This document shows positions 1 to 18,836 of a stretch of 29,598 nucleotides of DNA, piece after piece. Made by a program: the position numbers and the translations under genes. Position 1 is the first letter of the stretch. Every line of letters starts with the position of its first letter. The notes below the pieces were generated by a model. It saw nothing but the letters and a program-made list of their open reading frames with translations. It did no database searches and was not told the origin of the DNA. Source of the DNA: Calothrix sp. NIES-2098 (GTDB taxonomy: Bacteria; Cyanobacteriota; Cyanobacteriia; Cyanobacteriales; Nostocaceae); assembly GCA_002368175.1 (NCBI GenBank), contig AP018172.1:1-29598 (forward strand), written 5' to 3'.

Positions 1-2
1 AG

Positions 3-164
3 GCTTTAACTTCTAATGCAACCCCTGGTAAACAGAAGGCACCATTAATTATGCCTGCGACAGGTTGGGTATTTAATAACGGCGAAGTCACGTTGATATC
101 TCATACCCCGAAATCTTCTGCTGCTTGGGTGAATTCCTCTAACTGTGCTGCTAAAAGCCAATGA
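3..164 (+). CDS. 3' end of an upstream filamentous-haemagglutinin-type exoprotein paralog (5'-truncated by window edge)
   Basis: Frame-3 translation reads ...ALTSNATPGKQKAPLIMPATGWVFNNGEVTLISHTPKSSAAWVNSSNCAAKSQ* with a TGA stop at 162-164. Nucleotides 44-147 are ~97% identical to 3697-3800, the 3' end of the next gene. Seen directly in sequence. Confidence 0.6.
   Translation, partial: ALTSNATPGKQKAPLIMPATGWVFNNGEVTLISHTPKSSAAWVNSSNCAAKSQ
44..147. repeat. Direct repeat copy 1 (3' coding end of upstream paralog), ~104 nt, ~3 mismatches versus 3697..3800
   Basis: Seen in sequence: attaattatgcctgcgacaggttgggtatttaataacggcgaagtcacgttgatatctcatac... is present at both locations. Confidence 0.8.
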
Positions 165-325
165 CAGTAAGTAGTCAGGGCTAAAGTCTAATAAAAAATC
201 ACAATCCTCGCCATTTGCCCTAGGGATGAGTAGAATGTTGGATACTTTTTATCCAAAAAATTACTTAGTTTATAGATTAAGTTCGTATAAATAAGCCAAG
301 GTAAGACTTCCGTCACAATACTGAG

Positions 326-3300
326 ATGATTCGAGCTAATCGGCAAAAGTTATGGCACTTGAGATTGGTAATTATATTAGCAATGACTACCGCATTGACA
401 AATTCTGCACGCGCTCAAATTGTTCCAGATGGCACATTAGGAGCAGAAAGTACAATACTCACACCAAATACTAACGTTCAGGGATTACCTGCAAGCTTAA
501 TTGAAGGCGGTGCTACCAGAGGTGTCAATTTATTCCAGAGTTTTTTACAATTCAACGTTGGTGATGGACAAAGAGTTTACTTTGCTAATCCCGCAGGTAT
601 TGAAAACATCTTCACTCGCGTCACAGGTAGCGACCCCTCCAAGATTTTCGGGACTTTAGGTGTGGATGGGAGGGCAAATCTGTTCTTCCTCAATCCCAAT
701 GGTATTATTTTCGGTTCCAATGCCCGCTTAGATGTTGCAGGTTCGTTTCTGGCGACGACAGCCAATAGCTTTGTCTTTGACAATGGCTTGAAGTTTAGCG
801 CTACAAATCCTGAAACAGCCCCATTACTCACAGTCAGTTTGCGTCCGGGGTTGCAGTTTGGCGCAAGTCAGTCGGGAAGTATTAGCAATACCGGAGATTT
901 AAACGTTGGACAAGATTTGACTCTGGTAGGTAGCAATCTCGATTTACAAGGTAATTTACAGGCGGGTAGAGATGTAACTCTTGAATCTCCTGGTGATATT
1001 TATTTAAATAATATAAAAGTTTCTACTAATTCTAATAATAATGACTTTAGCCGCATCAGCATCAACTCTACTGGTGGTTCTGTCTACTTAAATGGCTCTA
1101 ATTTAAATATTAGTAATATTAGCTCCAGCTATGCAGGAGATATCACTATTAATGCACGTCAAGAAATCCGAATTGAGAATGCAAGCAAAATCTCTAGTGC
1201 CGGAAATCTTGGCGAAATATTTATTGGAACATCAGAATATGCAGATTTCTATCCTTCAAAAGTCACTATTGCCAACTCTCAAATAAACAATAGTAATTTT
1301 ATGGATGGTAATGATGTTGGCAATATAGTAGTTAAATCTCTGGGCGATTTATTGATAACTAACAGTAGTCTGGAAACTACAACTTACAGTTCAGGAAAGG
1401 GAGGAAACATTAATATTGAGGCTAGTTCCGTGTCTCTGAAAAATCAAAGTTCTCTATTAGCTAATACTCAAGGAACAGGAAAAGCAGGCAGTGTAACTGT
1501 TAACACAACTGGCGGTGCAGTTTCGCTTTCCGATAGTAGTATAAACACCGGTACTAATCAAATTAGCGTAGCTCTGCAAGATTTATCTAATCAAGAAGGT
1601 GCGGGTGGCGGTGATATTAATATTACAGCTGATTCGTTATTTTTAACAAACAACTCTATTTTAAATGCAAGTAGCTTGGGTTCAGGAGATAGCGGCAATG
1701 TCTCTATTACCGCAGCCAAAACAGTATCTTTTACAGACAATTCTATTTTAAATGCAAGAACTTATCTGCAAGGAAATGCAGGTAATGTCAATATCAAAGC
1801 TCAAGAACTTGCTTTTCATAATCAATCGCTAATCCAAGCCACAAGTTTTGGCAGTGGTAACGCAGGTAATTTGAATATAATTACTCAATCCTTATCTTTG
1901 AGTGACATATCAAGAATTGACGCTCAAACTTTTGGTAGTGGTCATGCAGGTAATATCAATATCAAAACGCAGTCTCTTTCCCTAACAGAGGGAGCGAGAA
2001 TTAATGCTGAAACTTTTGGTAGTGGTAAAGGTGGCAATATTACTATTAATCCTCTCAAAGATGAAGACCAAGCAACTGCTTCTGTTACTATCTCAGGTTC
2101 AGCACCTTTAATTCAAGTTTCCAGTGGATTCTCAGTGAATACTGAAAGCGAACAACCTGATGCTGGGACTGGTGGCAATATCTTGATTAAAACTGGAAAT
2201 CTAACTATTAGTGATGGTGGTGTTTTAAGCGCTCCTTCTAAAAGTAGCGGTAACGGTGGAAATATCAATATCAATGTCAATAATCTTGAGCTTACATCTG
2301 GGGGACAAATTATTACTAATGCTTATAGAAGTGGACAAGCAGGTAGTATCAAAATTAATGCAACCGATCGGATTACCATTACCGGACAAAATTATGAATA
2401 CGAGCAAAGGTTTAATAAACTGAAAAGCCAACTGGATATCCTGAAACCTATCTACGATGCTTTTCTAGTTACAAACAACCAAGAAACTAGACAAATACTC
2501 GACCCAATTACTAACTTGATTAATCACTTGAGTGCATTACTGAAAAGTCCTAGTTCCAATCAACTACTTGACGAACTGAAACAACGACTCGAACAATTTA
2601 AAAATAGCTATGATTTTATTCTAATTGCAAATAATCCACAAATTAGCTACATACTCGAACCAATTAAGAACTTAATTAATAACGTGAATGGGCTGGATCA
2701 AATTATAATTGCTGCGCAAGACCCTACTTACGCTCAACAACTCAATGAACTTAAAGCTCAACTCGATCGCCTAAGTAATAGCTACAATTTTGTTTTACCG
2801 CAAAATGATGCGGAAATTAGACGCATCCTCGGCCCGATTAATCAATATAGCGGACTGTTCGCCAACACCGAAGCAAATTCTACAGGTAATGGCGGTACGA
2901 TTGATGTTGCATCAGGGCAAGCCACAATTAAAGATAGTGCCAGAATCTCTGTAGATAGCCAAGGAACAGGTATAGCTGGAAGTATCAGCATTACATCCAA
3001 TCGTTTGACTCTGGACAATCAAGCAAAGATTACCGCCGACACCAATAGCGGTCAAGGTGGTAGCATCGCACTCAACTTGCAAGATTTATTGCTGTTTCGG
3101 CGCAAAAGTGTCGTTTCCACCACCGCAGGTAGACAAGGTGCAGGTGGCGATGGCGGTGCGATCGCAATTAACCTAGATACTAATCGCGGTTTTATTGTCT
3201 CCCCATCTGTGGAAAATAACGATATCTCTGCAAATGCGTTCTCAGGTAGCGGCGGAACTATCGAAATCAACGCCAAAGGCGTAATTGGGTTAGCAACGCT

Positions 3301-3817
3301 GACTAGACAAGAACTTGAGCAGAAATTAGGCACCACCGACCCGGAAAAACTCGACCCACAATTTCTCTCAACCAACGATATTACAGCGATTTCTCAAACC
3401 AACCCGCAGTTAAATGGCATAGTCAGCATCAGTTCGCCAGAGATTGACCCCAGCAAAGGAATAGTTTCGTTACCAATCAATGCCACCGACCCTTCGCAAC
3501 AGATAGCCCAAAGCTGTAGCGCGGTGAATGAAAAGGTTGCTAGTGCATTTGTTGATGCTGGACGTGGCGGTCTACCCCCCAAACCTGATGAATTTCTCAG
3601 CAGCGATACTGTTTGGGAAGATATCCGCATTCGGGCTAGCAATACACAGCAAACAGCTTTAACCTCTACTGTAACGCCCATTGAACGTAAGACTGCATTA
3701 ATTATGCCTGCGACAGGTTGGGTATTTAATAACGGCGAAGTCACGTTGATATCTCATACGCCCAAGTCTTCTGCTGCTTGGGTGAATTCCTCTAACTGTG
3801 TTGCTGGGAATAATTAA
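326..3817 (+). CDS. Filamentous haemagglutinin family exoprotein (TpsA-like, N-terminal TPS/haemagglutination-activity domain)
   Basis: N-terminal signal-like segment, then a TPS-domain hallmark (NPNGIIFG, GxxxR/ANLFFLNP). Long run of degenerate beta-helix repeats of the type GSGxAGNxNI / TxSL. Central region has three ~58-aa tandem repeats. C-terminal ~35 aa is shared with the upstream paralog. Family assignment from established knowledge of TpsA/FHA proteins. Confidence 0.85.
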   Translation: MIRANRQKLWHLRLVIILAMTTALTNSARAQIVPDGTLGAESTILTPNTNVQGLPASLIEGGATRGVNLFQSFLQFNVGDGQRVYFANPAGIENIFTRVTGSDPSKIFGTLGVDGRANLFFLNPNGIIFGSNARLDVAGSFLATTANSFVFDNGLKFSATNPETAPLLTVSLRPGLQFGASQSGSISNTGDLNVGQDLTLVGSNLDLQGNLQAGRDVTLESPGDIYLNNIKVSTNSNNNDFSRISINSTGGSVYLNGSNLNISNISSSYAGDITINARQEIRIENASKISSAGNLGEIFIGTSEYADFYPSKVTIANSQINNSNFMDGNDVGNIVVKSLGDLLITNSSLETTTYSSGKGGNINIEASSVSLKNQSSLLANTQGTGKAGSVTVNTTGGAVSLSDSSINTGTNQISVALQDLSNQEGAGGGDINITADSLFLTNNSILNASSLGSGDSGNVSITAAKTVSFTDNSILNARTYLQGNAGNVNIKAQELAFHNQSLIQATSFGSGNAGNLNIITQSLSLSDISRIDAQTFGSGHAGNINIKTQSLSLTEGARINAETFGSGKGGNITINPLKDEDQATASVTISGSAPLIQVSSGFSVNTESEQPDAGTGGNILIKTGNLTISDGGVLSAPSKSSGNGGNININVNNLELTSGGQIITNAYRSGQAGSIKINATDRITITGQNYEYEQRFNKLKSQLDILKPIYDAFLVTNNQETRQILDPITNLINHLSALLKSPSSNQLLDELKQRLEQFKNSYDFILIANNPQISYILEPIKNLINNVNGLDQIIIAAQDPTYAQQLNELKAQLDRLSNSYNFVLPQNDAEIRRILGPINQYSGLFANTEANSTGNGGTIDVASGQATIKDSARISVDSQGTGIAGSISITSNRLTLDNQAKITADTNSGQGGSIALNLQDLLLFRRKSVVSTTAGRQGAGGDGGAIAINLDTNRGFIVSPSVENNDISANAFSGSGGTIEINAKGVIGLATLTRQELEQKLGTTDPEKLDPQFLSTNDITAISQTNPQLNGIVSISSPEIDPSKGIVSLPINATDPSQQIAQSCSAVNEKVASAFVDAGRGGLPPKPDEFLSSDTVWEDIRIRASNTQQTALTSTVTPIERKTALIMPATGWVFNNGEVTLISHTPKSSAAWVNSSNCVAGNN
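2414..2870 (+). repeat. Three in-frame tandem ~58-aa coding repeats inside the TpsA-like gene (LKxQLDxL...Y[DN]F[IV]L...[EA]xRxILxPIxNLIN)
   Basis: Protein-level repeats start at nt 2414, 2576 and 2750, a period of ~174 nt. They are seen by eye in the translation. Their helix-like composition contrasts with the flanking Gly/Asn/Ser-rich beta-helix repeats. Confidence 0.6.
3697..3800. repeat. Direct repeat copy 2 (3' coding end of the 1163-aa exoprotein gene)
   Basis: Same ~104-nt segment as 44..147 at a constant offset of 3653 nt. Confidence 0.8.
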
Positions 3818-3937
3818 GGGTTTTAAACTAACCGCCAAGAATTATTTGCTCAGAATATCTAGCTGTGTTCTCTGCGCCTCTGCGTGAATTCCTTTTTTAA
3901 ATCTATATTCACGACTAAATAAAATAACTATATTTAT

Positions 3938-5770
3938 ATGTATTCGTCACTAAAAAACTCTACATTCCAAAGTCCCAAATTTAAAAAATCAAATTTTATA
4001 AGTTGGCTGATATTTACATTTTTTTTATTCAACTTTCTCGCCTTCAAGTCACTAGCGCAAACTCCAACTAACCCACCCGTACAAGATATAGACCGCCAAA
4101 TCGAACAACCTACTCCTCCAACGCCTACACTACCAAAACTGCCGAATCTCGACGAGTTATTTCCATCTCCACCTGTCACTACTCCCACACCTCCAACTGG
4201 CGAAACAGTTCCTAAAGATTTACCAAGAACAATTCAAGTAACTAGTTTTGATGTGATAGGTAGCACTGTATTTAATAAACAAGAATTAGATGCAGCACTC
4301 CAAGAATTTATCAATAAACCCATCTCTTTTGCTCAACTATTAGAAGCGGCAGATAAAATCACAGAACTATACGCTAAAGGTTGTCAAGCTGAAAAGAAAA
4401 ATTCCGATTTACCTTGTTACGTTAACTCCGGCGCCTACATTCCTTCAGACCAAACTTTTAAAGTCGAAGGTGGTATAGTCAAAATTCAAGTTGTAGAAGG
4501 TAGTTTAGAAAGTATTGAGATTCGCGGTACAAGAAGACTCAATCCTAACTATGTGCGAAGTCGCCTAGCTTTAGCTACAGATAAGCCTTTAAATTTAAAG
4601 AAATTACTGCAAGCTTTACAACTATTACAGTTAGATCCATTAATTAAAAATATCTCTGCGGAATTAGGTAATGGTGTTAATCCTGGTGCGAGTGTATTAT
4701 CCGTGCAAGTCGCGGAAGCAAAAACATTTAGCGCCCAAGTTAGTTTAGATAATAACCGTACACCAAGCATAGGTAGTTTTGAACGACAAATTCAACTTAA
4801 CCAAGCAAATTTATTGGGGTTGGGAGATGGATTAAGCATTGGTTATGCAAACACTGATGGAAGTAATAGTGTAGATGTCAGCTATAAATTACCCATCAAT
4901 CCTCGCAATGGCACTTTGCAATTTAATTATAGCTATGCATCCAGCAATGTAATTGAGGAACCTTTCAATATTTTAGATATTGAAGGTACTTCCCAAGAAT
5001 ACGGTGTTAGTTTTCGCCAACCATTAATACAAACTCCCACTACCGAATTTGCAGTTGGAATTAGTGCAACTCATCGAGATAGCGATGTCGGCTTTTTACA
5101 AGCACAGGTGGGAGAACGGCTTCCCTTTCCATCTGCGGGTGCAGATGCAAATGGAAAGACGAAAGCGACTATCTTGCGGTTGTTTCAAGACTGGACTCAG
5201 CGTAGTAGCAAACAAGTACTCGCGGCGCGATCGCAATTTAGTTTAGGTATAGATGCGTTAGATGCCACAATTAACGAAGATGCGCCCGATGGTCAATTTT
5301 TTACATGGCGCGGACAAGCGCAATGGGTGCGTCTGCTAGCACCAGAAACTTTATTTTTAGTACGTGCAGATATTCAATTAGCTGATAGACCCCTATTAGC
5401 CTCCGAACAGATGGGTTTGGGAGGACAAGCAACAGTTCGCGGTTATCGTCAAGACCAAATATTAGCAGATAATGGCTTTTTGGCAACTGCGGAATTGCGC
5501 TATCCAGTGTTGCGCGTACCAGAAATTCAAGGTTTACTACAAGTTACTCCATTTATTGATTTTGGTACAGCTTGGAATTTTTCCCAACCAGGGAGAACTA
5601 CTTTGAATCCTGATACTATCGCCTCAACTGGAATCGGATTGTTATGGCAACAGAACAATTTAACAGCGCGTTTTGATTGGGGTATTCCCCTCGGTATTGA
5701 TATTCCTAATAAAAATACTTGGCAAGAAAACGGACTCTATTTTTCTATTATTTATACTCAACCATTTTAG
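3938..5770 (+). CDS. ShlB/FhaC/HecB-family outer-membrane transporter (TpsB) with POTRA domain
   Basis: N-terminal signal peptide (LIFTFFLFNFLAFKSLAQ|T). Pro/Thr-rich linker (PTPPTPTLPKLP...PPVTTPTPPTGE). POTRA-like segment (IQVTSFDVIGSTVFNKQELDAAL...). C-terminal beta-barrel ending with aromatic Phe (YTQPF), typical of Omp85/TpsB. It starts 120 nt downstream of the TpsA-like gene. Confidence 0.85.
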   Translation: MYSSLKNSTFQSPKFKKSNFISWLIFTFFLFNFLAFKSLAQTPTNPPVQDIDRQIEQPTPPTPTLPKLPNLDELFPSPPVTTPTPPTGETVPKDLPRTIQVTSFDVIGSTVFNKQELDAALQEFINKPISFAQLLEAADKITELYAKGCQAEKKNSDLPCYVNSGAYIPSDQTFKVEGGIVKIQVVEGSLESIEIRGTRRLNPNYVRSRLALATDKPLNLKKLLQALQLLQLDPLIKNISAELGNGVNPGASVLSVQVAEAKTFSAQVSLDNNRTPSIGSFERQIQLNQANLLGLGDGLSIGYANTDGSNSVDVSYKLPINPRNGTLQFNYSYASSNVIEEPFNILDIEGTSQEYGVSFRQPLIQTPTTEFAVGISATHRDSDVGFLQAQVGERLPFPSAGADANGKTKATILRLFQDWTQRSSKQVLAARSQFSLGIDALDATINEDAPDGQFFTWRGQAQWVRLLAPETLFLVRADIQLADRPLLASEQMGLGGQATVRGYRQDQILADNGFLATAELRYPVLRVPEIQGLLQVTPFIDFGTAWNFSQPGRTTLNPDTIASTGIGLLWQQNNLTARFDWGIPLGIDIPNKNTWQENGLYFSIIYTQPF

Positions 5771-5814: not shown

Positions 5815-8538
5815 ATGTCTATAATTTTACTTCTCGCCACCTTATCTCTAAATCCTGCTGTCAATTTAATTAACCAAAGTTCTCCCTTAGTTGCAGCCAT
5901 TAACCCCCAGGTATCACAGACTCAAACTGCAAATGCTAAGGAATTATTAGATCGAGGTTTAATAGCATACCAAAAAGAACAATATTCTCCAGCACTCAAG
6001 ATTTTCCAACAGGCGAATGAATCGTTTCAAGCTACAGGAGATAAACTTAATCAAGCGCTGATATTGAATTATCTTTCCTTAACTTATCAACAGTTAGGAA
6101 AATTAGCTGATGCTCAACACGCTACAGAGCAAAGTTTGCAGTTATTAAATAGCAAAAGTAATAGCAAAGATTATTTATCGATTCGTGCCCAAGCACTTAA
6201 TACTCAAGGCCAGTTACAACTAGCAAGGGGAGAAACAGAAAAAGCTTTAAATAGCTGGCAAGAGGCAACAGCTACTTACAGTAAAATTGGTGATGAATCA
6301 GGTAAAATTGGTAGCAAAATCAATCAAGCTCAAGCACTACAAACATTAGGGCTTTACCGTCGCGCTACTAATATTTTAGAGGAAATTAAGCTGACTTTAG
6401 ATAAACAACCAGACTCTCTATTGAAAGTAACTGGATTTCTTAGTCTGGGTAATAGCTTACGTGTGGTTGGAGATGTCGATAAATCTCGGCAAATATTAGA
6501 GAAAAGTTGTCAGATACAAGCAAAAATATCGCAAGCTGAAGAAGTTTGTAATTTAAAGTTAAGTTTAGGTAACAAAGCCCAAGTAGAACCAAACATCGAA
6601 CAAGATAGATTAGGAGAAATTCTTTTAAGTTTGGGGAATACTGCCCAGGAACAGCAAAACATCGAAGAAGCAATACAGTTTTATGAACGCGCTGCTAGTA
6701 TTTCTCAAAAGCCAACAACACAGTTACCAGCACAATTAAATCAATTACGGCTATTAGTTCAGTCTTTATCAACAGAGTCAATAACGCCAGCTTTGTCACA
6801 AGATATTCTCTCTAAAATTGCCAATTTATCAACAAAGCTTGAGAGTTTACCTGCCAGCCGTAGTAGTGTTTATGCTCGAATTAACTTTGCCCAAACTCTA
6901 GTTAAGTTAACAAAAACAGGTGTGTTAGCAGAGGAAAATATTGCTCAAGATACCTGCACAGCTTCCAATTCTCTCTGTACGGCTGCTAAAGTTGTCGCTA
7001 CAGGTTTTCAGCAAGCTAAAAATCTCGAAGATGTACGCGCCCAAGCCTATGCTTTAGGTACTTTGGGAAGTTTGTACGAACAAACTCAACAATGGTCGGA
7101 AGCTCAAACTTTGACTCAACAAGCGCTAAAATTAGCAGAGGGTATTCAAGCACGAGATATAGCTTATCGTTGGCAATGGCAGTTAGGACGAATTCTCAGT
7201 GCGGATGGTAATACTCAAGGTAATGAGTTAGGTGCCATTGCAGCTTATGATAAAGCAGTCAAGAATTTAAAATCTATCCGTCGCGATTTAGTTACTGTTA
7301 ATCGCGATGCCCAATTTTCTTTTCGGGATGAAGTAGAACCAGTCTATCGAGAATATGTGAGTTTGCTATTACCAAAAACTGGGGAACCTACTACTGAAAA
7401 TTTAGATAAAGCTAGAAAAGTTATTGAATCGTTACAGTTAGCAGAATTAGATAACTTTTTTCGCAGAGCTTGTGTAGACGCTAAACCCGTACAAATTGAT
7501 GAAATCGATCGGCAGAAACAAACAGCTGTAATTTATCCTGTGGTTTTGAGCGATCGCTTATCTATTATTCTCTCATTACCGCATCAGCAAAACAATAAAT
7601 CCCTGAAATTACATACAGTTATTCTGCCTAAAAATGCATTTGAAGAAAAAATTAAAGAACTGCATAGAAAAATATTTTTTAGAAGTTCTCGTGACTTTCT
7701 AGAAACTTCACAGCAAGTATACGAATGGTTGATTCGCCCTATCGAATCAGATTTACAAAATAGCGGTGTGAAAAATATCGTCTTTGTTTTAGACGGAACA
7801 TTGCAGAGTATCCCAATTGCAGCACTTTACGATCGAGAGAAAAAAGAATATTTAATTGAGAAAAAATATAACATTGCTAACACACCAGGTTTAGAATTAT
7901 TACCTCCTCAGCCTTTAACAAACAAACGCTTACAAGCAGTAGTTGGTGGACTCAGTGAAGCCCGTGATAATTTTCCGGCATTACCGGGAGTAAAATATGA
8001 GCTTGAGCAAATCAAAGGTATATTTTCGACAGCCGGAAATTTTATAGATAACAATTTTACGATCAAAAAAATTGAAGAAGCTGTTAAGTCTTTTCCAGGG
8101 GGAATATTACACTTAGCAACTCATGGTAAGTTTAGTTCTAAAGCAGAAGACACGTTCATTTTGACTTGGAATCAACGGCTAAATGTTAACGATTTTAGTT
8201 CTGTATTAAAAACTCGCGAGACCAATCAACAAACTGCAATAGATTTACTTGTCTTAAGTGCTTGTGAAACAGCAGCAGGTGATAGCCGCGCTGCTTTAGG
8301 ATTAGCGGGAATTGCTGTACAGTCTGGCGCGCGCAGTACATTAGCAACTCTGTGGAGTGTGAATGATGAAGCAACTGCGGCTCTAATGATTCAGTTTTAC
8401 AAAGAAATTGCTCAGAATCAAAAAAAAGCTGAAGCTTTACGTAACGCCCAACTATTTCTACTTTCAGGACAGTTAAATCCTAAATTTAAACATCCCTATT
8501 ACTGGGCACCTTTTGTTTTAGTAGGTAATTGGCAGTAA
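5815..8538 (+). CDS. TPR-repeat protein with C-terminal CHAT (caspase-like) peptidase domain and N-terminal signal peptide
   Basis: N-terminus MSIILLLATLSLNPAVNLINQ is signal-peptide-like. TPR-like helical repeats lie at roughly aa 40-480 (YQQLGKLADA, LGLYRRA etc.). CHAT hallmarks: His in HLATHGKF (codon at 8122-8124) and Cys in LVLSACETAAG (codon at 8263-8265), then WSVNDEATAALM and a C-terminal HPYYWAPFVLVGNW. The gene starts 44 nt after the TpsB stop. Confidence 0.85.
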   Translation: MSIILLLATLSLNPAVNLINQSSPLVAAINPQVSQTQTANAKELLDRGLIAYQKEQYSPALKIFQQANESFQATGDKLNQALILNYLSLTYQQLGKLADAQHATEQSLQLLNSKSNSKDYLSIRAQALNTQGQLQLARGETEKALNSWQEATATYSKIGDESGKIGSKINQAQALQTLGLYRRATNILEEIKLTLDKQPDSLLKVTGFLSLGNSLRVVGDVDKSRQILEKSCQIQAKISQAEEVCNLKLSLGNKAQVEPNIEQDRLGEILLSLGNTAQEQQNIEEAIQFYERAASISQKPTTQLPAQLNQLRLLVQSLSTESITPALSQDILSKIANLSTKLESLPASRSSVYARINFAQTLVKLTKTGVLAEENIAQDTCTASNSLCTAAKVVATGFQQAKNLEDVRAQAYALGTLGSLYEQTQQWSEAQTLTQQALKLAEGIQARDIAYRWQWQLGRILSADGNTQGNELGAIAAYDKAVKNLKSIRRDLVTVNRDAQFSFRDEVEPVYREYVSLLLPKTGEPTTENLDKARKVIESLQLAELDNFFRRACVDAKPVQIDEIDRQKQTAVIYPVVLSDRLSIILSLPHQQNNKSLKLHTVILPKNAFEEKIKELHRKIFFRSSRDFLETSQQVYEWLIRPIESDLQNSGVKNIVFVLDGTLQSIPIAALYDREKKEYLIEKKYNIANTPGLELLPPQPLTNKRLQAVVGGLSEARDNFPALPGVKYELEQIKGIFSTAGNFIDNNFTIKKIEEAVKSFPGGILHLATHGKFSSKAEDTFILTWNQRLNVNDFSSVLKTRETNQQTAIDLLVLSACETAAGDSRAALGLAGIAVQSGARSTLATLWSVNDEATAALMIQFYKEIAQNQKKAEALRNAQLFLLSGQLNPKFKHPYYWAPFVLVGNWQ

Positions 8539-8601: not shown

Positions 8602-9153
8602 ATGAGCGTTATTACTGCCAAGTGGACGATTGACGAATATCACCGCATGATTGACGCTGGCATTTTGAGTTCGCGCAAAGTTGAATTACTTAAAGGAGAA
8701 ATTGTCGAAATGTCGCCGGAAGGGGAACCTCATGCTTATTCTAGTGATGAAGCTGGTGAGTATTTAGCAAACTTATTGAGCGAGCGTGCTAAAATTCGTC
8801 ATGCTAAACCAATTACCCTACCTAACGACTCAGAACCAGAACCAGATATTGCCATTGTTCAACGTTTAGGACGCGAGTATCGAGAGCATCATCCTTATTC
8901 AGAAAATATTTTCTGGGTGATTGAATATGCTAACTCTAGTTTAGACAAAGATCTAGAGACAAAAAGTAAAATCTATGCAGAAGCAGGAATTTTAGAATAT
9001 TGGGTTGTCAATCTTAAAAAGTTACATCTAGTAGTGTTTAGAGACATCCTAGATGGAGAGTATGCAACCAAACAAACGTTAACTTCAGGAACAATTCAAC
9101 CACTTGCATTTCCAGATATTTCTGTTGAAGTAGAAAAAATTATTAATAGGTAA
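8602..9153 (+). CDS. Uma2-family (DUF820) putative PD-(D/E)XK endonuclease
   Basis: The N-terminus (WTIDEYHRMIDAGIL...VELLKGEIVEMSPEG..PHA) and C-terminal D...E.K-like segments (PDIAIV, VIEYANSS, ILEYWVVNL) match a family that is very abundant in cyanobacteria. Assignment from family knowledge. Confidence 0.75.
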   Translation: MSVITAKWTIDEYHRMIDAGILSSRKVELLKGEIVEMSPEGEPHAYSSDEAGEYLANLLSERAKIRHAKPITLPNDSEPEPDIAIVQRLGREYREHHPYSENIFWVIEYANSSLDKDLETKSKIYAEAGILEYWVVNLKKLHLVVFRDILDGEYATKQTLTSGTIQPLAFPDISVEVEKIINR

Positions 9154-9243: not shown

Positions 9244-10257
9244 TCAAACCAAGCACATAAAAATACTTGGGCGCTTCAGTTGCTGAATTAAATAATTAGA
9301 AAGCAAGTTATGCTTGATTTGATAGATAGTTTTGCCAGTTCTATAGGCTAAATTCTTTAACCTAACCCAAACCAACATTGCACAAGCAATATGATTTCTT
9401 TGGAGTCTAGCTTTCCGACACTGGCAAGATTCAATGCCAGTTAGTTGTTTAATTTCCCTGTGAAACTCCTCTATTTTCCAACGAATTTTACACACCTGTT
9501 GTACAACATCCGTGGAACTTTGAGATAAATCGTTAGTGGCGACATAATCCGTTCTGTTGGTAGAAACAGTAACCCGGAATAGTTTCACTTTTTTATTAGC
9601 TGGGAATCCTTTAATTTTTATGATTTTACCACAGTCTAATTCTTCTTGGTTCCATTCTAATAATTCAATCCGTTTATATTTTTCTTGACCAAATGTATCA
9701 TCAACTAAACGATTATTTTTTAAAGGGCAATAATAAATTTTGTCTAAGCTATCAATATATAGCATTAAACTGTGTACCGCATACCATGTATCCATCAAAA
9801 CAGTATCAAATGGTAAAAGCTTATGATACACAAGGTTTTGGAGCATATCTTTCACATGGTCTATCTTGGTTTTCCCATCGACATCAGGATTAAAAATTCG
9901 ATAATCTATGACCCAAAATCTTTGAAGTGTAGGGTTGACATACACGCAGCTAACTACACCAATGCCTTTCAGGACACCATGCTCATTACCACTATATTGT
10001 CTTCTGACTATTTCTATTTCTTCAGAATACTTTTTATCTAAAACGCTATCATCAAATATGATGTAACCATTTTCATCAGACTCAACGACCTCTTTCACGT
10101 TATCCCATAGTAAACGAGGTGTTAATTTTTCGGTTTTCAAATAATAGTTAATTGCGTCATGACTAATACTCTCTAAATGCTCTGCCAAATTGGTAATTGT
10201 ATAATTAATTTGACTACTTAATAAATATTGGCAGTAATTAAGCTTAGTAAATCTCAT
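9244..10257 (-). CDS. DDE transposase (IS4/IS5/IS701 superfamily)
   Basis: 337 aa. The C-terminal motif CKIRWKIEEFHREIK has the R-x3-E-x6-K signature of the IS4/IS5/IS701 DDE transposase superfamily. Acidic residues are spaced consistently with a DDE triad. The ORF is flanked by the TIRs above. Confidence 0.75.
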   Translation of the reverse strand: MRFTKLNYCQYLLSSQINYTITNLAEHLESISHDAINYYLKTEKLTPRLLWDNVKEVVESDENGYIIFDDSVLDKKYSEEIEIVRRQYSGNEHGVLKGIGVVSCVYVNPTLQRFWVIDYRIFNPDVDGKTKIDHVKDMLQNLVYHKLLPFDTVLMDTWYAVHSLMLYIDSLDKIYYCPLKNNRLVDDTFGQEKYKRIELLEWNQEELDCGKIIKIKGFPANKKVKLFRVTVSTNRTDYVATNDLSQSSTDVVQQVCKIRWKIEEFHREIKQLTGIESCQCRKARLQRNHIACAMLVWVRLKNLAYRTGKTIYQIKHNLLSNYLIQQLKRPSIFMCLV

Positions 10258-12235: not shown

Positions 12236-14677
12236 ATGCCCAGTGAAAAAGCTAAAGTCAAAAACAACGGTGTCAGTAATATTATTTCACCAAAGCAGAG
12301 CAATAGAAAGCGATCGCAGCTGGAAGAAACGCAATCATCAGGTACATCACTGCTGCATTCAAGTTCATCAAATAAAAAGATTCAACTAACGGAAACCTTT
12401 CAAGATACTCCTGATATCATCTGCTTATCTCATCTGCGTTGGAATTTTGTTTATCAACGACCACAACATCTTCTTAGCCGTTGCGCCCAAGGAAAACGAG
12501 TTTTCTTTATTGAGGAGCCAATTTTCTCCCCCGATCCCGTGGGCAGGTTAGAGATCGACGAAGATGCTAGTGGGGTAGTCGTGGTTGTACCACATCTACC
12601 AGAAGGAATGAGTGAAGAAGCTATCAACGCAGATTTACAAGTTTTAATTGATGGTTTGTTTGCCAAACATAAAATCGACAAATACATTTGTTGGTATTAC
12701 ACGCCAATAGCGATCGCATTTACTCGCCATTTGCAGCCTCAAGCCATAGTGTATGATTGCATGGATGAATTGTCTGCATTCAAAGGCGCATCACCCACGT
12801 TAAAGAATTACGAAGCCGAACTATTCCGCCTTGCAGACTTAGTATTTACAGGGGGACAAAGCCTTTACGAAAGTAAAGTCAACCAGCATCCCAACGTCTA
12901 TGCATTTCCTAGCAGTGTAGATGTGCCACACTTTGCCCAAGCCAGAAATATTCCAGAAGCAGCAGATCAAGCCCATATTCCCCATCCTCGCCTCGGATTT
13001 TTTGGCGTCATTGACGAACGGATGGATATTGAACTGCTGGCTGGTATTGCCGAAGCGCGTCCTGATTGGCATTTAGTAATTATTGGGCCAGTTGTCAAAA
13101 TCGATCCCGCAACTTTACCACAGCACGAGAATATACATTATCTCGGTGGCAGAGACTATAAACAACTACCTGCCTATTTAGCAGGGTGGGATTTGGCAAC
13201 ATTACCCTTTGCGCGTAATGAGTCAACACGCTTTATTAGTCCTACCAAAACTCCAGAGTATCTTGCCGCAGGTCGACCTGTAGTATCCACCTCAATTCGC
13301 GATGTGGTGCGTCCCTACGGCGAGTCGAAACTGGTGCGAATTGCAGACACAGTTTCGGATTTCGTCACCGCCGCCGAACAAGCAATGCAAGAAGACACCA
13401 GAACATCAGAATGGTTGAGTCGAGTAGATGCTTTCTTAGAAAAGATTTCTTGGGATCGGACTTGGGCATCAATGATGAAACTGATTGATTCTGCCATTGC
13501 TGCCCGCGATAGTGAAGACAAAGCTAACTCCAAAGGTGCAGCGAGTACACAAGCACCAAATATCATTACTAGAGAATTTGTCTTCGATTACTTGGTTGTC
13601 GGCGCTGGTTTTTCTGGCAGCGCGATCGCCGAACGTTTGGCAAGTCAGTCTGGTAAAAAAGTACTGATTGTAGACAAGCGCAATCACATCGGCGGCAATG
13701 CCTACGATCATTATGACGATCATGGCGTTCTCGTACACAGATACGGCCCGCATATCTTTCACACCAACTCCCGCGAAGTCTTTGAATACCTTTCGCGCTT
13801 CACTCAGTGGCGTTCTTACGAACATCGCGTTCTGGCAAGTGTAGACGGGCAACTTGTCCCGATTCCCATCAACCTCGACACCATCAACAAGTTGTATGGT
13901 ATGAATCTCAATTCATTCGAGGTGCAGGAGTTTTACAAATCACTCGCTGAACCAATAGAAAACATCCGCACTAGTGAGGATGTGGTGGTGAGCAAAGTTG
14001 GTCGAGAACTGTATGAAAAGTTTTTCCGGGGTTATACGCGCAAGCAATGGGGACTCGACCCATCAGAACTTGATAAATCAGTAATTGCCCGGATACCGAC
14101 CCGCACCAACCGCGACAATCGTTATTTTACCGATACTTACCAAGCAATGCCACTGCACGGCTTTACGCGGATGTTTGAGAATATGCTCAATCATCCGAAT
14201 ATCAAGATAATGCTGAACACAGATTATCGGGAAATTCAAAAAGCCATTCCTTGCCGTGAAATGGTTTACACAGGCCCAGTTGATGAATTTTTTGATTATC
14301 GCTATGGCAAGCTACCATATCGATCGCTCGATTTTAAGCATGAGACACACAACACAACTGTGTTTCAATCAGCACCAGTCATCAACTATCCTAACGAACA
14401 CCTTTATACCCGCGTGACGGAGTTTAAGTACTTAACTGGGCAGGAACACAATAAAACTAGTATTGTGTACGAATTTCCCAAAGCTGAGGGCGATCCTTAC
14501 TATCCTATACCGCGTCAAGAAAATAACGAAATGTACAAGCAGTATAAGGCGCTGTCTGATACGACACCAGGAGTATATTTTGTCGGCAGACTAGCAACCT
14601 ACAAGTACTACAACATGGATCAATGTGTTGCTCAGGCTCTCTCTGTGTACAAGCAAATTGCCGTTAAAGCCTCATAA
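12236..14677 (+). CDS. Bifunctional glycosyltransferase (N-terminal, GT-B-like) / UDP-galactopyranose mutase (C-terminal Glf domain) fusion protein
   Basis: C-terminal ~370 aa match UGM/Glf throughout: FAD motif VVGAGFSGSAIA, KRNHIGGNAY, YGPHIFHT, GYTRKQWG, RIPTRTNRDNRYF, YRSLDF, GDPYYPI, GRLATYKYYNMDQ. N-terminal ~440 aa resemble a GT-B fold glycosyltransferase (WNFVYQRPQHLL, FFIEEP). The first ~60 aa are Ser/Lys-rich low complexity, so the start is uncertain. Confidence 0.8.
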   Translation: MPSEKAKVKNNGVSNIISPKQSNRKRSQLEETQSSGTSLLHSSSSNKKIQLTETFQDTPDIICLSHLRWNFVYQRPQHLLSRCAQGKRVFFIEEPIFSPDPVGRLEIDEDASGVVVVVPHLPEGMSEEAINADLQVLIDGLFAKHKIDKYICWYYTPIAIAFTRHLQPQAIVYDCMDELSAFKGASPTLKNYEAELFRLADLVFTGGQSLYESKVNQHPNVYAFPSSVDVPHFAQARNIPEAADQAHIPHPRLGFFGVIDERMDIELLAGIAEARPDWHLVIIGPVVKIDPATLPQHENIHYLGGRDYKQLPAYLAGWDLATLPFARNESTRFISPTKTPEYLAAGRPVVSTSIRDVVRPYGESKLVRIADTVSDFVTAAEQAMQEDTRTSEWLSRVDAFLEKISWDRTWASMMKLIDSAIAARDSEDKANSKGAASTQAPNIITREFVFDYLVVGAGFSGSAIAERLASQSGKKVLIVDKRNHIGGNAYDHYDDHGVLVHRYGPHIFHTNSREVFEYLSRFTQWRSYEHRVLASVDGQLVPIPINLDTINKLYGMNLNSFEVQEFYKSLAEPIENIRTSEDVVVSKVGRELYEKFFRGYTRKQWGLDPSELDKSVIARIPTRTNRDNRYFTDTYQAMPLHGFTRMFENMLNHPNIKIMLNTDYREIQKAIPCREMVYTGPVDEFFDYRYGKLPYRSLDFKHETHNTTVFQSAPVINYPNEHLYTRVTEFKYLTGQEHNKTSIVYEFPKAEGDPYYPIPRQENNEMYKQYKALSDTTPGVYFVGRLATYKYYNMDQCVAQALSVYKQIAVKAS

Positions 14678-14694
14678 TTAGGGCTTTTTTGTAG

Positions 14695-14724
14695 GGTGCG
14701 TTAGGACATTAGTCCTAACGCACC
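14695..14724 (+). terminator. GC-rich hairpin (13-bp perfect stem, 4-nt loop) downstream of the GT/UGM gene; possible terminator or RNA structure
   Basis: Stem GGTGCGTTAGGAC-atta-GTCCTAACGCACC. The T6 run lies upstream of the stem rather than downstream, so this is not a canonical intrinsic terminator. Confidence 0.3.
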
Positions 14725-14882
14725 GAAAGTCTCGGATAGGGCTAAGAGAGGGGCATAACACACCCTAAAAATTACTGATGGTCAAGATTTTTACAGCCGT
14801 TTTCACGTATTTGAACCACATCTATCCAGCTAAAAATAGCTGTAATCCATCCAAAATCCAAAATTGGTATGAGTTGTAAATT

Positions 14883-17093
14883 ATGACTTCTGCTTTCAAC
14901 TCGACACTCAATACTACCAAATCACAACTTCCCCTAGAAGTGTGGGCTGGTCTAGAGTGTACGGTTAATCGTGTGGGTGACGAGTATTTCGATCAGTTAG
15001 AACGCAATGGTCATGCAACGCGTTTAGATGACCTAGATTTATTCGCTGAACTAGGTATACAAGCCATCCGCTATCCAGTGCTGTGGGAACGCATAGCACC
15101 GAATGGATTGGAGAATGCTGACTGGTCGTGGGCAGATGAACGATTAGAACGCTTGCACAAACTTGGTATCCGTCCGATTGTGGGATTAGTCCATCATGGC
15201 AGCGGCCCGCGTGATACAAGCTTGATAGATCCAGAATTTCCTGAGAAACTAGCGGTTTTTGCGCGGGCGGTGGCGAAACGCTACCCTTGGATAACACATT
15301 ACACACCTGTAAACGAACCACTGACAACAGCCCGATTTAGTGGGATGTACGGTCACTGGTATCCTCACGGTCAAGACGATTTAACTTTTGCCCGTGCTTT
15401 GTTGGGAGAATGTCGAGCGATCGCACTTTCAATGCAAGCCATCCGCGAAGTTAACCCCAATGCTCAACTCGTACAAACTGAAGATTTAGGAAAGATTTAC
15501 AGTACGCCAAAGCTGGCTTATCAAGCAGAATTTGAGAACGAGCGCCGCTGGTTGAGCTTTGATTTATTGTGTGGTCGAGTTACTCCAACTCATCCCATGT
15601 GGGGTTACTTGCGCCATTGTGGTGTCAGCGAGGCTGAAATAGAAGTATTTTTACAAAATCCCTGTCCGCCTGACATTATCGGCATTAACCACTATCTGAC
15701 GAGCGAGCGCTTTTTAGATGAGCATCTAGAAAATTATCCCGCTTGCACGCATGGCGGTAACGGGCGGGATAACTATGCAGATGTGGAGGCTGTACGAGTT
15801 TGTGCTGAAGGTTTGGCAGGGCCGCGAACTTTGCTCAAAGAGACATGGGAACGCTATCAACTGCCCCTAGCTGTGACTGAAGTTCACCTCAGTTGCACCC
15901 GTGAAGAACAGTTACGCTGGCTCCATGAAGTGTGGAACGCAGCTCAAGAATTACGAGAACAGGGTGCAGATGTGCGTGCTGTGACGGCTTGGGCACTGCT
16001 CGGCAGCTACGATTGGAATAGTTTACTAACTCGCTGTGTAGGATACTACGAGTCAGGGGTATTTGATTTGCGCTCATTACGTCCTCGTCCAACAGCGATC
16101 GCCAAAATGGTGCAAGATTTAGCCACTGGACGTCAACCCAATCACCCCATACTCGACACCCCAGGATGGTGGCATCGGCAAGAACGACTCTTATACCCAG
16201 CAGTCATTTGTGATAAGAACAGAGGGGAATTTCAATCTCTACTCTCCCCTGCTTCCTCTCGTCCGCTAGCAATAATTGGAGCCACAGGTACTTTAGGTAG
16301 GGCTTTCGCTCGCTTGTGCGAACTACGTGGCATCTCCTATCGCCTGCTCACACGGCAAGATATGGACATTGCCAATCCCGCTTCCGTTGATGCAGCCCTT
16401 ACCGAGTTACAACCTTGGGCAGTTGTGAATGCTGCGGGATACGTGCGAGTAGATGATGCAGAACGCGAACCTCATATTTGTTTAAAGATAAACGCTGAAG
16501 GCCCGGCAATTTTAGCTGCTGCTTGTGCTAAACATCATGTAGCGCTGCTGACTTTTTCATCAGATTTAGTATTTGATGGTGCTGTCTCTAATCCTTATAT
16601 CGAAACTGATAGCGTTGCTCCTCTGAATGTGTATGGGTGCAGCAAAGTTTTGGCAGAAAAGCTTGTATTACAGGCTTATCCAGCATCCTTAGTGATTCGT
16701 ACCAGTGCATTTTTCGGCCCTTGGGATGAGTACAACTTTGTCACCATCGCCCTGCGACAATTAGCAGCAGGTAATACTTTTGTAGCCGCAGAAGATGCGA
16801 TCGTCTCACCTACTTATGTACCCGATCTTGTTCATACCAGCCTTGATTTGCTAATTGATGGCGAGAACGGTTTATGGCACTTGGCAAATAAAGACGCTGT
16901 AGCTTGGGCTGACTTGGCACGATTAGCGGCGAAAAAAGCAGGTGTGAGTGTTAGCGGTTTAATTTCTGTGCCTACACAAGAACTAGGTTTCATCGCTCCT
17001 CGCCCAGCTTATAGCGTTCTCGGTAGCAGTCGCGGTGAATTAATGCCACACCTTGATAGTGCAATTTCTCGCTACTTGGAAGAGAGAGGCTAA
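14883..17093 (+). CDS. Fusion protein: N-terminal clan GH-A-like TIM-barrel glycoside-hydrolase-like domain + C-terminal RmlD-like (dTDP-4-dehydrorhamnose reductase family) domain
   Basis: N-terminal domain has the clan GH-A acid/base signature NEP (YTPVNEPLTT) and a nucleophile-like TE (LAVTEVHLS). C-terminal ~280 aa has the RmlD pattern: IIGATGTLG, VVNAAGYVRVDDAEREP, NAEGPAILA, SSDLVFDG, YGCSK (catalytic YxxxK). Confidence 0.7.
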   Translation: MTSAFNSTLNTTKSQLPLEVWAGLECTVNRVGDEYFDQLERNGHATRLDDLDLFAELGIQAIRYPVLWERIAPNGLENADWSWADERLERLHKLGIRPIVGLVHHGSGPRDTSLIDPEFPEKLAVFARAVAKRYPWITHYTPVNEPLTTARFSGMYGHWYPHGQDDLTFARALLGECRAIALSMQAIREVNPNAQLVQTEDLGKIYSTPKLAYQAEFENERRWLSFDLLCGRVTPTHPMWGYLRHCGVSEAEIEVFLQNPCPPDIIGINHYLTSERFLDEHLENYPACTHGGNGRDNYADVEAVRVCAEGLAGPRTLLKETWERYQLPLAVTEVHLSCTREEQLRWLHEVWNAAQELREQGADVRAVTAWALLGSYDWNSLLTRCVGYYESGVFDLRSLRPRPTAIAKMVQDLATGRQPNHPILDTPGWWHRQERLLYPAVICDKNRGEFQSLLSPASSRPLAIIGATGTLGRAFARLCELRGISYRLLTRQDMDIANPASVDAALTELQPWAVVNAAGYVRVDDAEREPHICLKINAEGPAILAAACAKHHVALLTFSSDLVFDGAVSNPYIETDSVAPLNVYGCSKVLAEKLVLQAYPASLVIRTSAFFGPWDEYNFVTIALRQLAAGNTFVAAEDAIVSPTYVPDLVHTSLDLLIDGENGLWHLANKDAVAWADLARLAAKKAGVSVSGLISVPTQELGFIAPRPAYSVLGSSRGELMPHLDSAISRYLEERG

Positions 17094-17176: not shown

Positions 17177-17758
17177 ATGACAAAAACTATTTTAATTACG
17201 GGAGGAGCCGGATATATTGGCTCCCATGCAGTATTAGCTCTCAGAAATGCAGGTTATGAAGTAATTGTTTTAGATAACCTGTCGAATGGACATCGAGAAC
17301 TTGTAGAAGATGTTTTGCAGGTAAAGTTAATTGTTGGGGATATGAGCGATCGCTCTCTTCTCGCTCGCATATTCTCCACTCATAATATAGATGCAGTGAT
17401 GCATTTTGCAGCTTACATTGCTGTGGGTGTATCTGTTACTCATCCAGCCAAATATTACCAAAACAATGTTATCGGTACGCTGACACTTTTAAAAGCAATG
17501 CTCAAAGGCGGAGAAAGCGAAGTATTTAATTTAGGAAATGGTAGTGGTTTTTCAGTTAGAGAATTGATAGAAACTGCCAAGACAGTAACAGGAAGAAAAA
17601 TTAAAATCGAAGAGCGCGATCGCAGACCAGGCGATCCTCCTATTTTAGTTGGTAGTAGCTACAAAGCAAGACAACAATTGGGTTGGCAACCTCAATACCC
17701 AAACTTAGAAGAAATTATCAGTCACGCTTGGCAATGGCATCAGAAACGCCATATTTAA
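17177..17758 (+). CDS. UDP-glucose 4-epimerase (GalE)-like protein with in-frame internal deletion of the catalytic core (probably non-functional remnant)
   Basis: N-terminus ILITGGAGYIGSH...VLDNLSNG...DAVMHFAA..KYYQNNVIGTLTLLKAM is the GalE Rossmann part up to about residue 115. It joins directly to GalE C-terminal sequence (EVFNLGNGSGFSVRELIE...RRPGDPPILVGSSYKARQQLGWQP), which corresponds to residues ~245-330. The catalytic Ser and YxxxK region is absent. Confidence 0.6.
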   Translation: MTKTILITGGAGYIGSHAVLALRNAGYEVIVLDNLSNGHRELVEDVLQVKLIVGDMSDRSLLARIFSTHNIDAVMHFAAYIAVGVSVTHPAKYYQNNVIGTLTLLKAMLKGGESEVFNLGNGSGFSVRELIETAKTVTGRKIKIEERDRRPGDPPILVGSSYKARQQLGWQPQYPNLEEIISHAWQWHQKRHI

Positions 17759-18062
17759 ATTGAATTTGTCAATCATTTATAGTTTGGATTACATAGAGGA
17801 ATAGCATTGAATTTTCTATATATCTGTAGAGTGGGAATTGCCAAACATCCACTTAATTTTTACTGCTATATTTATCTTTCAGGTTATAAAGATTGTAGAT
17901 GAATTTTGCCTCTAAAGATAGAAACTAACCAAAATTTACCTCGATAAAATTAGAACATTAAATTAGATATTAATTTCAGTGGTTTTGCTGAAATATAACT
18001 TCGGCAAATAAGCACTATTTAATTTTCTAATTAAAAATATAACAAGGCAAAGAGGTATTGGT

Positions 18063-18836
18063 TTGAATATTTGCGAGCGACCACTTAGCTATTATATAAA
18101 AATTGAGCAATTCAGCGCTCAAGAAAATACTGTTTATGGGCTGGTAATTGCCATACTAATTATTAGCCTTTGGGTAGGTAGTTTGGCTTTGTTACTGAGC
18201 ATTAACTATGCCATAATGCCAGTTTGGTTAATACCGATTGCTATAGTTTGGCAAATGTTCCTCTATACAGGATTATTCATTACTGCGCATGATGCTATGC
18301 ATGGGTCGATTTTTCGCAAAAATCCGAAAATTAATAATTTTATCGGTTCGCTAGCTGTAACGCTTTACGCTGTGTTTCCATATCAACAGCTTTTAAAGAA
18401 ACATTGGTTACATCATCGTCATCCTGCTAGCGAACTTGACCCCGATTTTCATGATGGTAAAAGCGAAAATGCAATTTCCTGGTATTTCCGCTTCATGAAA
18501 GAATACTCTAATTGGCGACAATTAATAGTGCTAACTATCGTATTTAATTTGGCTAAATACTTTTTGCATATCTCAGAAATTAATCTCATCTTATTTTGGA
18601 GTATTCCACCAATTTTAAGTTCAATGCAACTGTTTTATTTCGGAACTTTTTTACCTCATCGAGAACCGGAATTAGGGTACATTTATCCCCATTGCAGCCA
18701 AACAATTGCCTTGCCAACTTTTTGGTCATTCATCGCTTGCTACCACTTTGGTTATCATGAAGAACATCATGAGTATCCCCATGTACCTTGGTGGCAACTT
18801 CCATCTATATATAGGCAGAGAGTCTTGAATAATTAA
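18063..18836 (+). CDS. crtW: Beta-carotene ketolase (CrtW family, membrane di-iron hydroxylase/desaturase fold)
   Basis: Histidine boxes HDAMHG, HHRHP and HEEHHEYPHVPW sit within a hydrophobic membrane protein and resemble cyanobacterial CrtW. The called start is a TTG; the true start may lie a few codons either side. Confidence 0.8.
   Translation: MNICERPLSYYIKIEQFSAQENTVYGLVIAILIISLWVGSLALLLSINYAIMPVWLIPIAIVWQMFLYTGLFITAHDAMHGSIFRKNPKINNFIGSLAVTLYAVFPYQQLLKKHWLHHRHPASELDPDFHDGKSENAISWYFRFMKEYSNWRQLIVLTIVFNLAKYFLHISEINLILFWSIPPILSSMQLFYFGTFLPHREPELGYIYPHCSQTIALPTFWSFIACYHFGYHEEHHEYPHVPWWQLPSIYRQRVLNN

Follow-up and report, generated by a model that had tools for sequence, protein, structure and literature searches.

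Homogenised ends of two tandem TpsA genes and a putative two-cysteine anchor domain at a locus for two-partner secretion in Calothrix sp. NIES-2098

We analysed the first 29,598 nucleotides (nt) of contig AP018172.1 of the cyanobacterium Calothrix sp. NIES-2098 (GenBank assembly GCA_002368175.1, forward strand); this whole stretch is referred to as the window, and its first letter is position 1. The window opens with a two-partner secretion (TPS) locus, in which the 3′ end of one TpsA gene, g1, is followed by a second TpsA gene, g2, and the two genes share a near-identical 104-nt segment, the core of a conserved element called Block 2 below, close to their stop codons. The genes would form an operon in the order g1, g2, tpsB and TPR/CHAT, with a DUF928 gene lying ahead of g1 in relatives. 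The features of the locus, all on the plus strand, are as follows.

1–164, plus strand: 3′ end of the upstream TpsA paralog g1, read in frame 3 with a TGA stop at 162–164; the gene continues protein P0013
3–42, plus strand: g1 copy of a divergent patch that forms the end of a hypervariable linker; unconverted, of the g1 ortholog type and near-identical to the linker of L001_g1, the syntenic gene described below
43–146, plus strand: Block 2, copy 1, with the beta-hairpin ATGWVFNNGEVTL and the terminal Cys codon at 144–146
326–3817, plus strand: TpsA paralog g2, 1163 residues, BAY06891.1
398–880, plus strand: 5′ homogenised tract, corresponding to the TPS secretion domain (about residues 25–185 of g2), near-identical to g1 in protein
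2765–3653, plus strand: 3′ conversion tract A (about residues 814–1110 of g2), with 284 of 285 residues identical to g1
3440–3814, plus strand: C-terminal domain of g2, about 125 residues, made up of Block 1, the hypervariable linker and Block 2
3654–3695, plus strand: g2 copy of the divergent linker patch, of the g2 ortholog type
3696–3799, plus strand: Block 2, copy 2, identical to window 43–146 at 101 of 104 nt, with a one-codon deletion in the hairpin turn
3938–5770, plus strand: TpsB transporter of the ShlB/FhaC type (POTRA_2 and Omp85 barrel), common to both TpsA paralogs
5815–8538, plus strand: TPR-CHAT protein with a signal-peptide-like N-terminus

The g2 product is 100% identical to the Calothrix sp. 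NIES-2098 protein P0001/BAY06891.1 and is built of a signal peptide, the TPS domain, two beta-helix segments with a helical insert between them, and a disordered C-terminal domain with two cysteines. PF05860 matched residues 30–293 of g2 with an E-value of 5e-45, TIGR01901 matched at 9.6e-26, and the signal peptide is readable in the sequence as MIRANRQKLWHLRLVIILAMTTALTNSARA/QIVPDG. The open reading frame (ORF) at 3938–5770 matched PF03865 (1.2e-31) and PF08479 (2.4e-11). With a TPS domain after the signal peptide, an adjacent TpsB and a beta-helical passenger, g2 is a TpsA protein (type Vb). In the AlphaFold 2 (AF2) model of full-length g2, the beta-helix segments covered residues 185–690 and 840–1040 with a predicted local distance difference test (pLDDT) score of about 90, and the best structural matches of the model in the PDB were EtpA, HxuA and HMW1, all of which are TpsA proteins. 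The TPS domain (residues 1–182) had a pLDDT below 50 in this model despite its strong Pfam match, which probably reflects a problem with the 3,856-column alignment and is no real feature of the protein. The annotations of g2 also disagree on its start: the GenBank start (1163 residues) gives a normal signal peptide ending ...SARA/QIVPDG, whereas the RefSeq start at Met20 (window 383, 1144 residues) drops most of the signal peptide (window 326–382).

Only the end of g1 lies in the window, where frame 3 at positions 3–161 encodes ALTSNATPGKQKAPLIMPATGWVFNNGEVTLISHTPKSSAAWVNSSNCAAKSQ*. The remainder of the gene product was found in P0013 (WP_339376483.1, 1508 residues, annotated as ‘partial’), which comes from the same 8.66-Mb replicon, ends with ...DIRIRASNTQ and stops 1 nt before the window, in frame with the window tail. 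The syntenic gene of Nostoc sp. 106C, L001_g1, reads ...NTQ-Q-ALTSNATPGKQKAA... across the corresponding junction, and the window opens with the last two bases of a split codon cAG (Q), followed by ALTSNATPGKQKAP, which is the same reading. The reconstructed g1 (P0013 plus the window tail) has 1563 residues and is 85% identical over its full length to L001_g1 (1566 residues), with 5 gap columns; P0013 carries PF05860, and L001_g1 matches this family at 3.4e-48. The PF05860 match, the in-frame continuity and the syntenic gene together bear out the statement of an earlier note on this DNA that the upstream gene is a haemagglutinin-type TpsA paralog. The same note had a tandem array extending upstream of the window, which was overstated, as the syntenic relatives have exactly one more TpsA gene, with the DUF928 gene before it. 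Since P0013 is ‘partial’ and ends 1 nt before the window, at the point where a long g1/g2 identical tract also ends, we infer that the repeat has left an assembly gap at the window edge in the ‘nearly complete’ genome of NIES-2098.

When the two gene ends were compared at the nucleotide level, window 43–146 and window 3696–3799 (offset 3653) were identical at 101 of 104 nt (97.1%), a result on which an alignment, a pattern search and a repeat finder concurred. The near-identical 3′ ends of about 104 nt reported in the earlier note were thus confirmed, both copies being coding. An exact run of 62 nt (45–106, equal to 3698–3759) occurs twice in the window and was present in none of 100 shuffled sequences. 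The three differences between the copies fall at third codon positions (window 109, 112 and 115, in Thr-Pro-Lys codons), and all are synonymous. At its C-terminus the 1163-residue ORF reads ...ALIMPATGWVFNNGEVTLISHTPKSSAAWVNSSNCVAGNN or, given at greater length, ...TALTSTVTPIERKTALIMPATGWVFNNGEVTLISHTPKSSAAWVNSSNCVAGNN. The 5′ flank of the repeat is about 64% identical (1–42 versus 3654–3695), and past the Cys codon the sequences are unrelated. The two copies are the only ones in the window, and both stand in frame at the ends of TpsA genes, so the segment is no dispersed intergenic repeat; a dispersed non-coding repeat, which the earlier note had named as the outcome that would overturn its claim, is ruled out by the lack of intergenic or multiple copies within the window. 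Tandem Repeats Finder, run on window 1–4000, found no repeats.

The identity between g1 and g2 in NIES-2098 was followed beyond the window edge by a protein alignment of P0013 plus the window tail with g2. The TPS domain (about residues 25–185) is near-identical in the two proteins, with one difference (E/D) across alignment positions 27–184. Identity is about 70% in the central part, where there are large indels. Ahead of the linker patch lies a tract of about 285 residues, 284 of 285 being identical, which is followed by a divergent patch of about 12–14 residues, 36 identical residues and finally 4–5 differing terminal residues. This long tract and the near-identical TPS domain refute the view that the identity is restricted to the 3′ module. 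The claim that the flanks of the block diverge holds within the window; the upstream divergence is merely a patch of about 14 codons, and near-identity returns past the window edge. Tract A takes in the C-terminal beta-helix segment together with Block 1 of the C-terminal domain. Orthologous identity, of the g1 or the g2 type, persists in the linker patch and in the last few codons, which mark the boundaries of the tracts.

Two further features were noted along g2. At window ~2400–2830 (g2 residues ~692–835) g2 has three tandem helical repeats of about 45 residues, and g1 has one; the repeat pattern of g2 is ...LKxQLDxLKxxYDFxLxxNxxExRxILxPIxN..., and AF2 predicted an alpha-helical insert between the two beta-helix segments. 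The G+C content is 48% at window 3001–3600, within the 3′ tract, versus 36–41% in the remaining operon, which could be due to GC-biased gene conversion or to the Gly/Ala-rich composition of the beta-helix.

Three related genomes (L001, the Nostoc sp. 106C locus, and loci L002 and L007) have their genes in the same arrangement, with a long TpsA gene and a short one, then TpsB and CHAT. A DUF928 gene lies directly upstream of the TpsA pair in L001 (1195–2109) and L002 (1231–2169), and the conserved cluster is thus DUF928-TpsA-TpsA-TpsB-CHAT. Paralogs and orthologues compared as follows.

Central region, nucleotide identity: paralogs within a genome about 79%; orthologues 87–90% (g2 with g2) and 96% (g1 with g1)
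3′ region, nucleotide identity: paralogs 92.1%, 96.5% and 96.0%; orthologues 86–90%
3′ region, differences at four-fold sites (residues 835–1110): paralogs 10.6–18.3%; orthologues 30–41%

In these relatives, the 3′ ~0.8–1 kb groups by genome and the central regions by orthology. As the central passenger regions group with orthologues across genera, the g1/g2 duplication is old and predates these genera, and a recent duplication is ruled out by the middle regions, which follow orthology across four genomes. The 3′ paralogs are closer than the orthologues at similar amino acid divergence, so that homogenisation has been at work and not constraint alone. In NIES-2098, both window copies of Block 2 carry a one-codon deletion in the hairpin turn (GWVFNN-GEV). 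A longer turn (length 5) is present in 236 of the 239 homologues with a detectable motif, and the deletion occurs in the NIES-2098 gene only, so that this derived deletion must have been copied between g1 and g2. Over the 104-nt block, the within-genome pair is 97.1% identical versus 86–94% for any orthologous pair.

The earlier note had raised gene conversion as one explanation of the shared ends, and the identity matrices of the relatives, the lowered four-fold-site divergence and the one-codon deletion present in both copies uphold it; gene conversion has acted on an old duplication. The gene ends have been homogenised repeatedly within each genome. In NIES-2098 the converted parts comprise the TPS secretion domain, the ~0.9-kb 3′ tract and the 104-nt block; they are broken by the linker-end island of about 14 codons, and conversion stops at the terminal Cys codon. 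Two other loci carry triple tandem TpsA arrays (L014, 2–10966, and L020, 2598–14553), with the last ~45 residues near-identical within each array, which points to concerted evolution of this kind there too.

Concerted evolution by gene conversion is a general phenomenon in tandem or dispersed surface-protein paralogs, and the repeat, shared by tandem adhesin-like paralogs, is in itself an ordinary instance of it. The mosaic seen here agrees with that pattern in its ends alike per genome, its orthology-following middle, its lowered synonymous divergence and its common derived indel. It differs in that the converted parts of g1 and g2 are the constant, machinery-facing ends, and in that conversion passes over a short island of hypervariable linker in three of the four genomes.

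Block 2 turned out to belong to a larger domain. The 35-residue module that the earlier note had singled out is no self-contained unit; it is the last block of a domain of about 125 residues with a second invariant Cys about 95 residues upstream. The only cysteines of g2 are Cys1064 (codon at 3515–3517) and Cys1158 (codon at 3797–3799), about 95 residues apart. An alignment of the last ~125 residues of 45 diverse members resolved Block 1, with the consensus DPSxGLxxLPxxxVDxSxxIAQxC...SxFxxTGRGGLPPxP, a linker hypervariable in both length and sequence, and Block 2, with the consensus IVEAQGWVxxxxGxVxLxAxxP...C; Block 2 corresponds to the module of the earlier note, and the divergent patch to the linker's end. 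Both Cys residues are invariant in the domain alignments A2 and A3. A Cys 1–15 residues from the C-terminus, together with a Cys 80–125 residues upstream, was found in 113 of the 120 best homologues, and most two-Cys homologues are without further cysteines outside the signal-peptide region.

A search with the domain profile, counted as representatives of 50% identity clusters, gave 7,859 representatives at E ≤ 1e-3 and 5,554 at E ≤ 1e-10. The match was at the extreme C-terminus in all of the best 150 of the 7,859 representatives, the two-Cys arrangement was present in 142 of 142 new representatives, and the named members that were inspected were all cyanobacterial. The profile also matched every TpsA ORF across 21 loci; L018 and L020 have a variant Block 2, ...EPTGVYRLNNGQLLLSRECS, and there only Block 1 of the profile was matched. 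Essentially all cyanobacterial TpsA proteins of the g1/g2 type carry the ~125-residue domain, and the family-wide alignment and profile matches support the idea of a selectively conserved C-terminal element with a Cys. Stand-alone small proteins with this domain were ruled out, as the short profile matches are fragments on contigs of 1–4 kb. Scans of the C-terminal domain against Pfam and NCBIfam with E-values up to 1 gave no match, and a profile search against PDB sequences gave chance-level matches only (E ≥ 0.9), although the solved HxuA structure is without its last 66 residues. A membrane sorting signal (PEP-CTERM, LPXTG, GlyGly-CTERM and similar) was rejected because the domain has no hydrophobic segment: the maximum 15-residue Kyte–Doolittle hydropathy in the last 125 residues was 0.61, and 1–15 polar residues follow the last Cys.

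In the AF2 predictions, both of the domain alone and of full-length g2, the last ~120 residues were disordered, except for a beta-hairpin at GWVFNNGEVTL, and the mean pLDDT of the 125-residue domain alone was 60. In HMW1 and HxuA of Haemophilus influenzae, a C-terminal anchor that contains a disulfide stays in the periplasm (Buscher et al. 2006, as summarised in the reviews PMC5422565 and PMC8151025). A disulfide tether of this kind is favoured for the cyanobacterial domain by the Cys pair, which is at the extreme C-terminus, non-helical and invariant in a protein otherwise free of cysteines, as in HMW1 and HxuA. By analogy, the domain would most likely function as a disulfide-closed periplasmic anchor, and it probably tethers the exoproteins to the outer-membrane transporter. 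In such a mechanism the two Cys residues would form a disulfide in the periplasm, and the closed loop could not pass the TpsB pore behind the rest of the protein; with the loop blocked at the pore, the exoprotein would stay tethered at the cell surface. The ‘constant’ ends would be the parts that must fit the single common TpsB, and possibly also an exported CHAT protease, and a fit to one TpsB would explain why the ends are kept alike while the middle diversifies. TpsB itself has exactly two cysteines, Cys149 and Cys160, just past the first POTRA match, which possibly form a periplasmic disulfide and may or may not bear on the TpsA Cys pair.

The likeness to HMW1/HMW2 and HxuA goes beyond the Cys pair. 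In all of them a TpsA that combines a beta-helix with a TPS domain at the N-terminus is encoded beside a TpsB, cysteines are very few, with a conserved pair in a non-helical extreme C-terminal segment, and the g2 model had EtpA, HxuA and the HMW1 secretion domain as its best structural matches; HMW1 and HMW2 are also a paralog pair. The systems differ in that the cyanobacterial Cys residues are about 95–120 residues apart and enclose the hypervariable linker and the beta-hairpin, and in that the accessory genes are TPR-CHAT and DUF928 as against a glycosyltransferase or a TonB receptor. They differ also in that the disulfide and the periplasmic retention of the cyanobacterial domain are predictions.

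Taken as a whole, homogenised tandem TpsA ends combined with a two-Cys C-terminal domain that acts as a periplasmic disulfide tether is the best explanation of the locus, to which we assign a probability of roughly 0.7. Of its elements, the family-wide two-Cys domain, the repeat, its conversion, the synteny and the identity of the genes are established, and the disulfide, retention in the periplasm and a part played by CHAT are proposed. Several findings weigh against it. The long g1/g2 tract in NIES-2098 was seen at the protein level only. At four-fold sites in L001 and L002, paralogs resemble each other in Block 2 alone no more than orthologues do, so that much of its conservation is due to purifying selection; for the 104-nt block by itself the four-fold-site numbers are small, too few to decide. 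The ‘partial’ status of P0013 suggests an assembly gap at the repeat boundary, and a collapsed assembly could inflate the identity. The anchor function of the C-terminal domain is proposed by analogy only, and the domain has no detectable sequence similarity to HMW1 or HxuA. The Cys spacing of about 95 residues is also far above that of the short HMW1 loop.

Other explanations of the block were also weighed. If purifying selection alone were at work, strong constraint on the encoded motif, in a pair of paralogs that diverge slowly, would account for the 104 nt, and the block itself would not have been converted. Orthologous copies in other genera are indeed already 86–94% identical over the block, the motif is conserved family-wide, and the four-fold-site divergence of Block 2 between paralogs in L001 and L002 is 25–33%, no lower than that of orthologues. 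However, no orthologous pair is as close as the within-genome pair (97.1%), three other genomes show clear concerted evolution of the adjacent 3′ kilobase, and selection alone is further weakened by the one-codon deletion, which is present in both copies and in no other homologue gene; we find this explanation distinctly unlikely. It is very improbable that the near-identity is an artefact of repeat collapse or cross-filling in a ‘nearly complete’ short-read assembly. P0013 does end at the window edge, where the long tract has its boundary as well, and such a break is typical of an assembly at the end of a repeat; on the other hand, the window copies differ at three synonymous sites, their linkers and tails are distinct and match those of the respective orthologues in genomes that were assembled independently, and the same mosaic is present in L001, L002 and L007. 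That the nucleotides of the block are conserved as an RNA or regulatory element, and not for the protein, is extremely improbable. The block folds somewhat better than shuffled sequences (z = −2.08, with 7 of 200 shuffles folding equally well), but the copies differ solely by synonymous changes at third positions, homologues with diverged DNA and only 30% identity keep the motif in their protein, and no convincing terminator or promoter overlaps the block.

The C-terminal module, or the linker before it, might also be where the TPR-CHAT protease, which is co-encoded and exported, recognises or cuts the exoprotein so as to mature or release it, an idea that the earlier note had raised for the module. 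CHAT genes adjoin TpsA or TpsA-TpsB in 12 of 20 related loci. The CHAT proteins of TPS loci have signal-peptide-like N-termini, clear in L014, L015 and L021 (e.g. MKRIKRFVVLMAIALLLSMTSPGLAQ in L021), which implies export to the periplasm, where the protease could act on the retained, disordered C-terminus. The window CHAT gene likewise has a signal-peptide-like N-terminal segment within 5815–5900. The C-terminal ~120 residues, being predicted to be disordered, would be accessible to a protease. Against this, the module is also present in TpsA genes without a CHAT gene within 10 kb (L003–L005, L009, L013, L016 and L017), and a search of the literature on cyanobacterial TPS with CHAT or DUF928 found nothing on a TPS-CHAT or TPS-CHAT/DUF928 system. 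A role as CHAT site is unlikely on this evidence; it is compatible with the anchor model, and the two do not exclude each other. The two ideas can be joined in a bolder form, in which the two-Cys domain would mark out an elaborated, uncharacterised form of type Vb secretion in cyanobacteria (DUF928, one or more TpsA, TpsB and exported TPR-CHAT): the disordered disulfide loop would plug or tether the protein at TpsB, and periplasmic CHAT would cut the linker, leading to release or activation. We consider this combined scheme quite unlikely; if it were true, release would be under a regulated switch, for which nothing comparable is described from the TPS systems of proteobacteria. A known case to compare is FhaB/FHA of Bordetella, in which a C-terminal prodomain is retained in the periplasm and removed by proteases. 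The cyanobacterial C-terminal segment would resemble it in being periplasmic and controlling release, with an accessory protease possibly involved, but the FhaB prodomain has about 1,200 residues as against about 125 in the cyanobacterial domain, and the FhaB proteases are encoded outside the operon, whereas the candidate CHAT protease lies within it.

Outside the TPS genes, several other features of the window were recorded. A gene for a putative Uma2-family endonuclease (8602–9153) and a DDE transposase gene on the minus strand (9244–10257) lie directly 3′ of the CHAT gene, and at the same position L001 and L002 have ORFs of other size and placement. Window 12236–17093 contains two unusual fusion ORFs, one joining a group 1 glycosyltransferase to a UDP-galactopyranose mutase (813 residues) and one joining a family 1 glycoside hydrolase to an RmlD-like reductase (736 residues). 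Genes that are seemingly truncated or split were found at 17177–18836 and 23425–24169. The match of a 193-residue ORF to dehydratase/epimerase profiles is confined to their first ~115 positions, and that of a 257-residue ORF to a fatty-acid desaturase profile is confined to its C-terminal half. A DUF72 ORF, which another ORF overlaps, breaks off at position 139 of the 217 in its profile.

For the NIES-2098 genome, the analysis flags a repeat-induced assembly gap. The two-Cys domain with its operon context (DUF928, two TpsA, TpsB and CHAT) is under-described and more interesting than the conversion: a very large family of cyanobacterial TPS exoproteins ends in this domain, for which we found no Pfam model, solved structure or literature. 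One member of the family is mutated in a phage-resistant Nostoc strain (PMC10811720), which hints that the family proteins are surface-exposed. For the many CHAT proteases that accompany TPS operons, the analysis yields a concrete and testable idea of their substrates. If the domain is a disulfide anchor, these abundant proteins would be cell-surface structures and not released toxins, which would matter for how cyanobacteria adhere, for the biology of their filaments and biofilms, and for phage reception.

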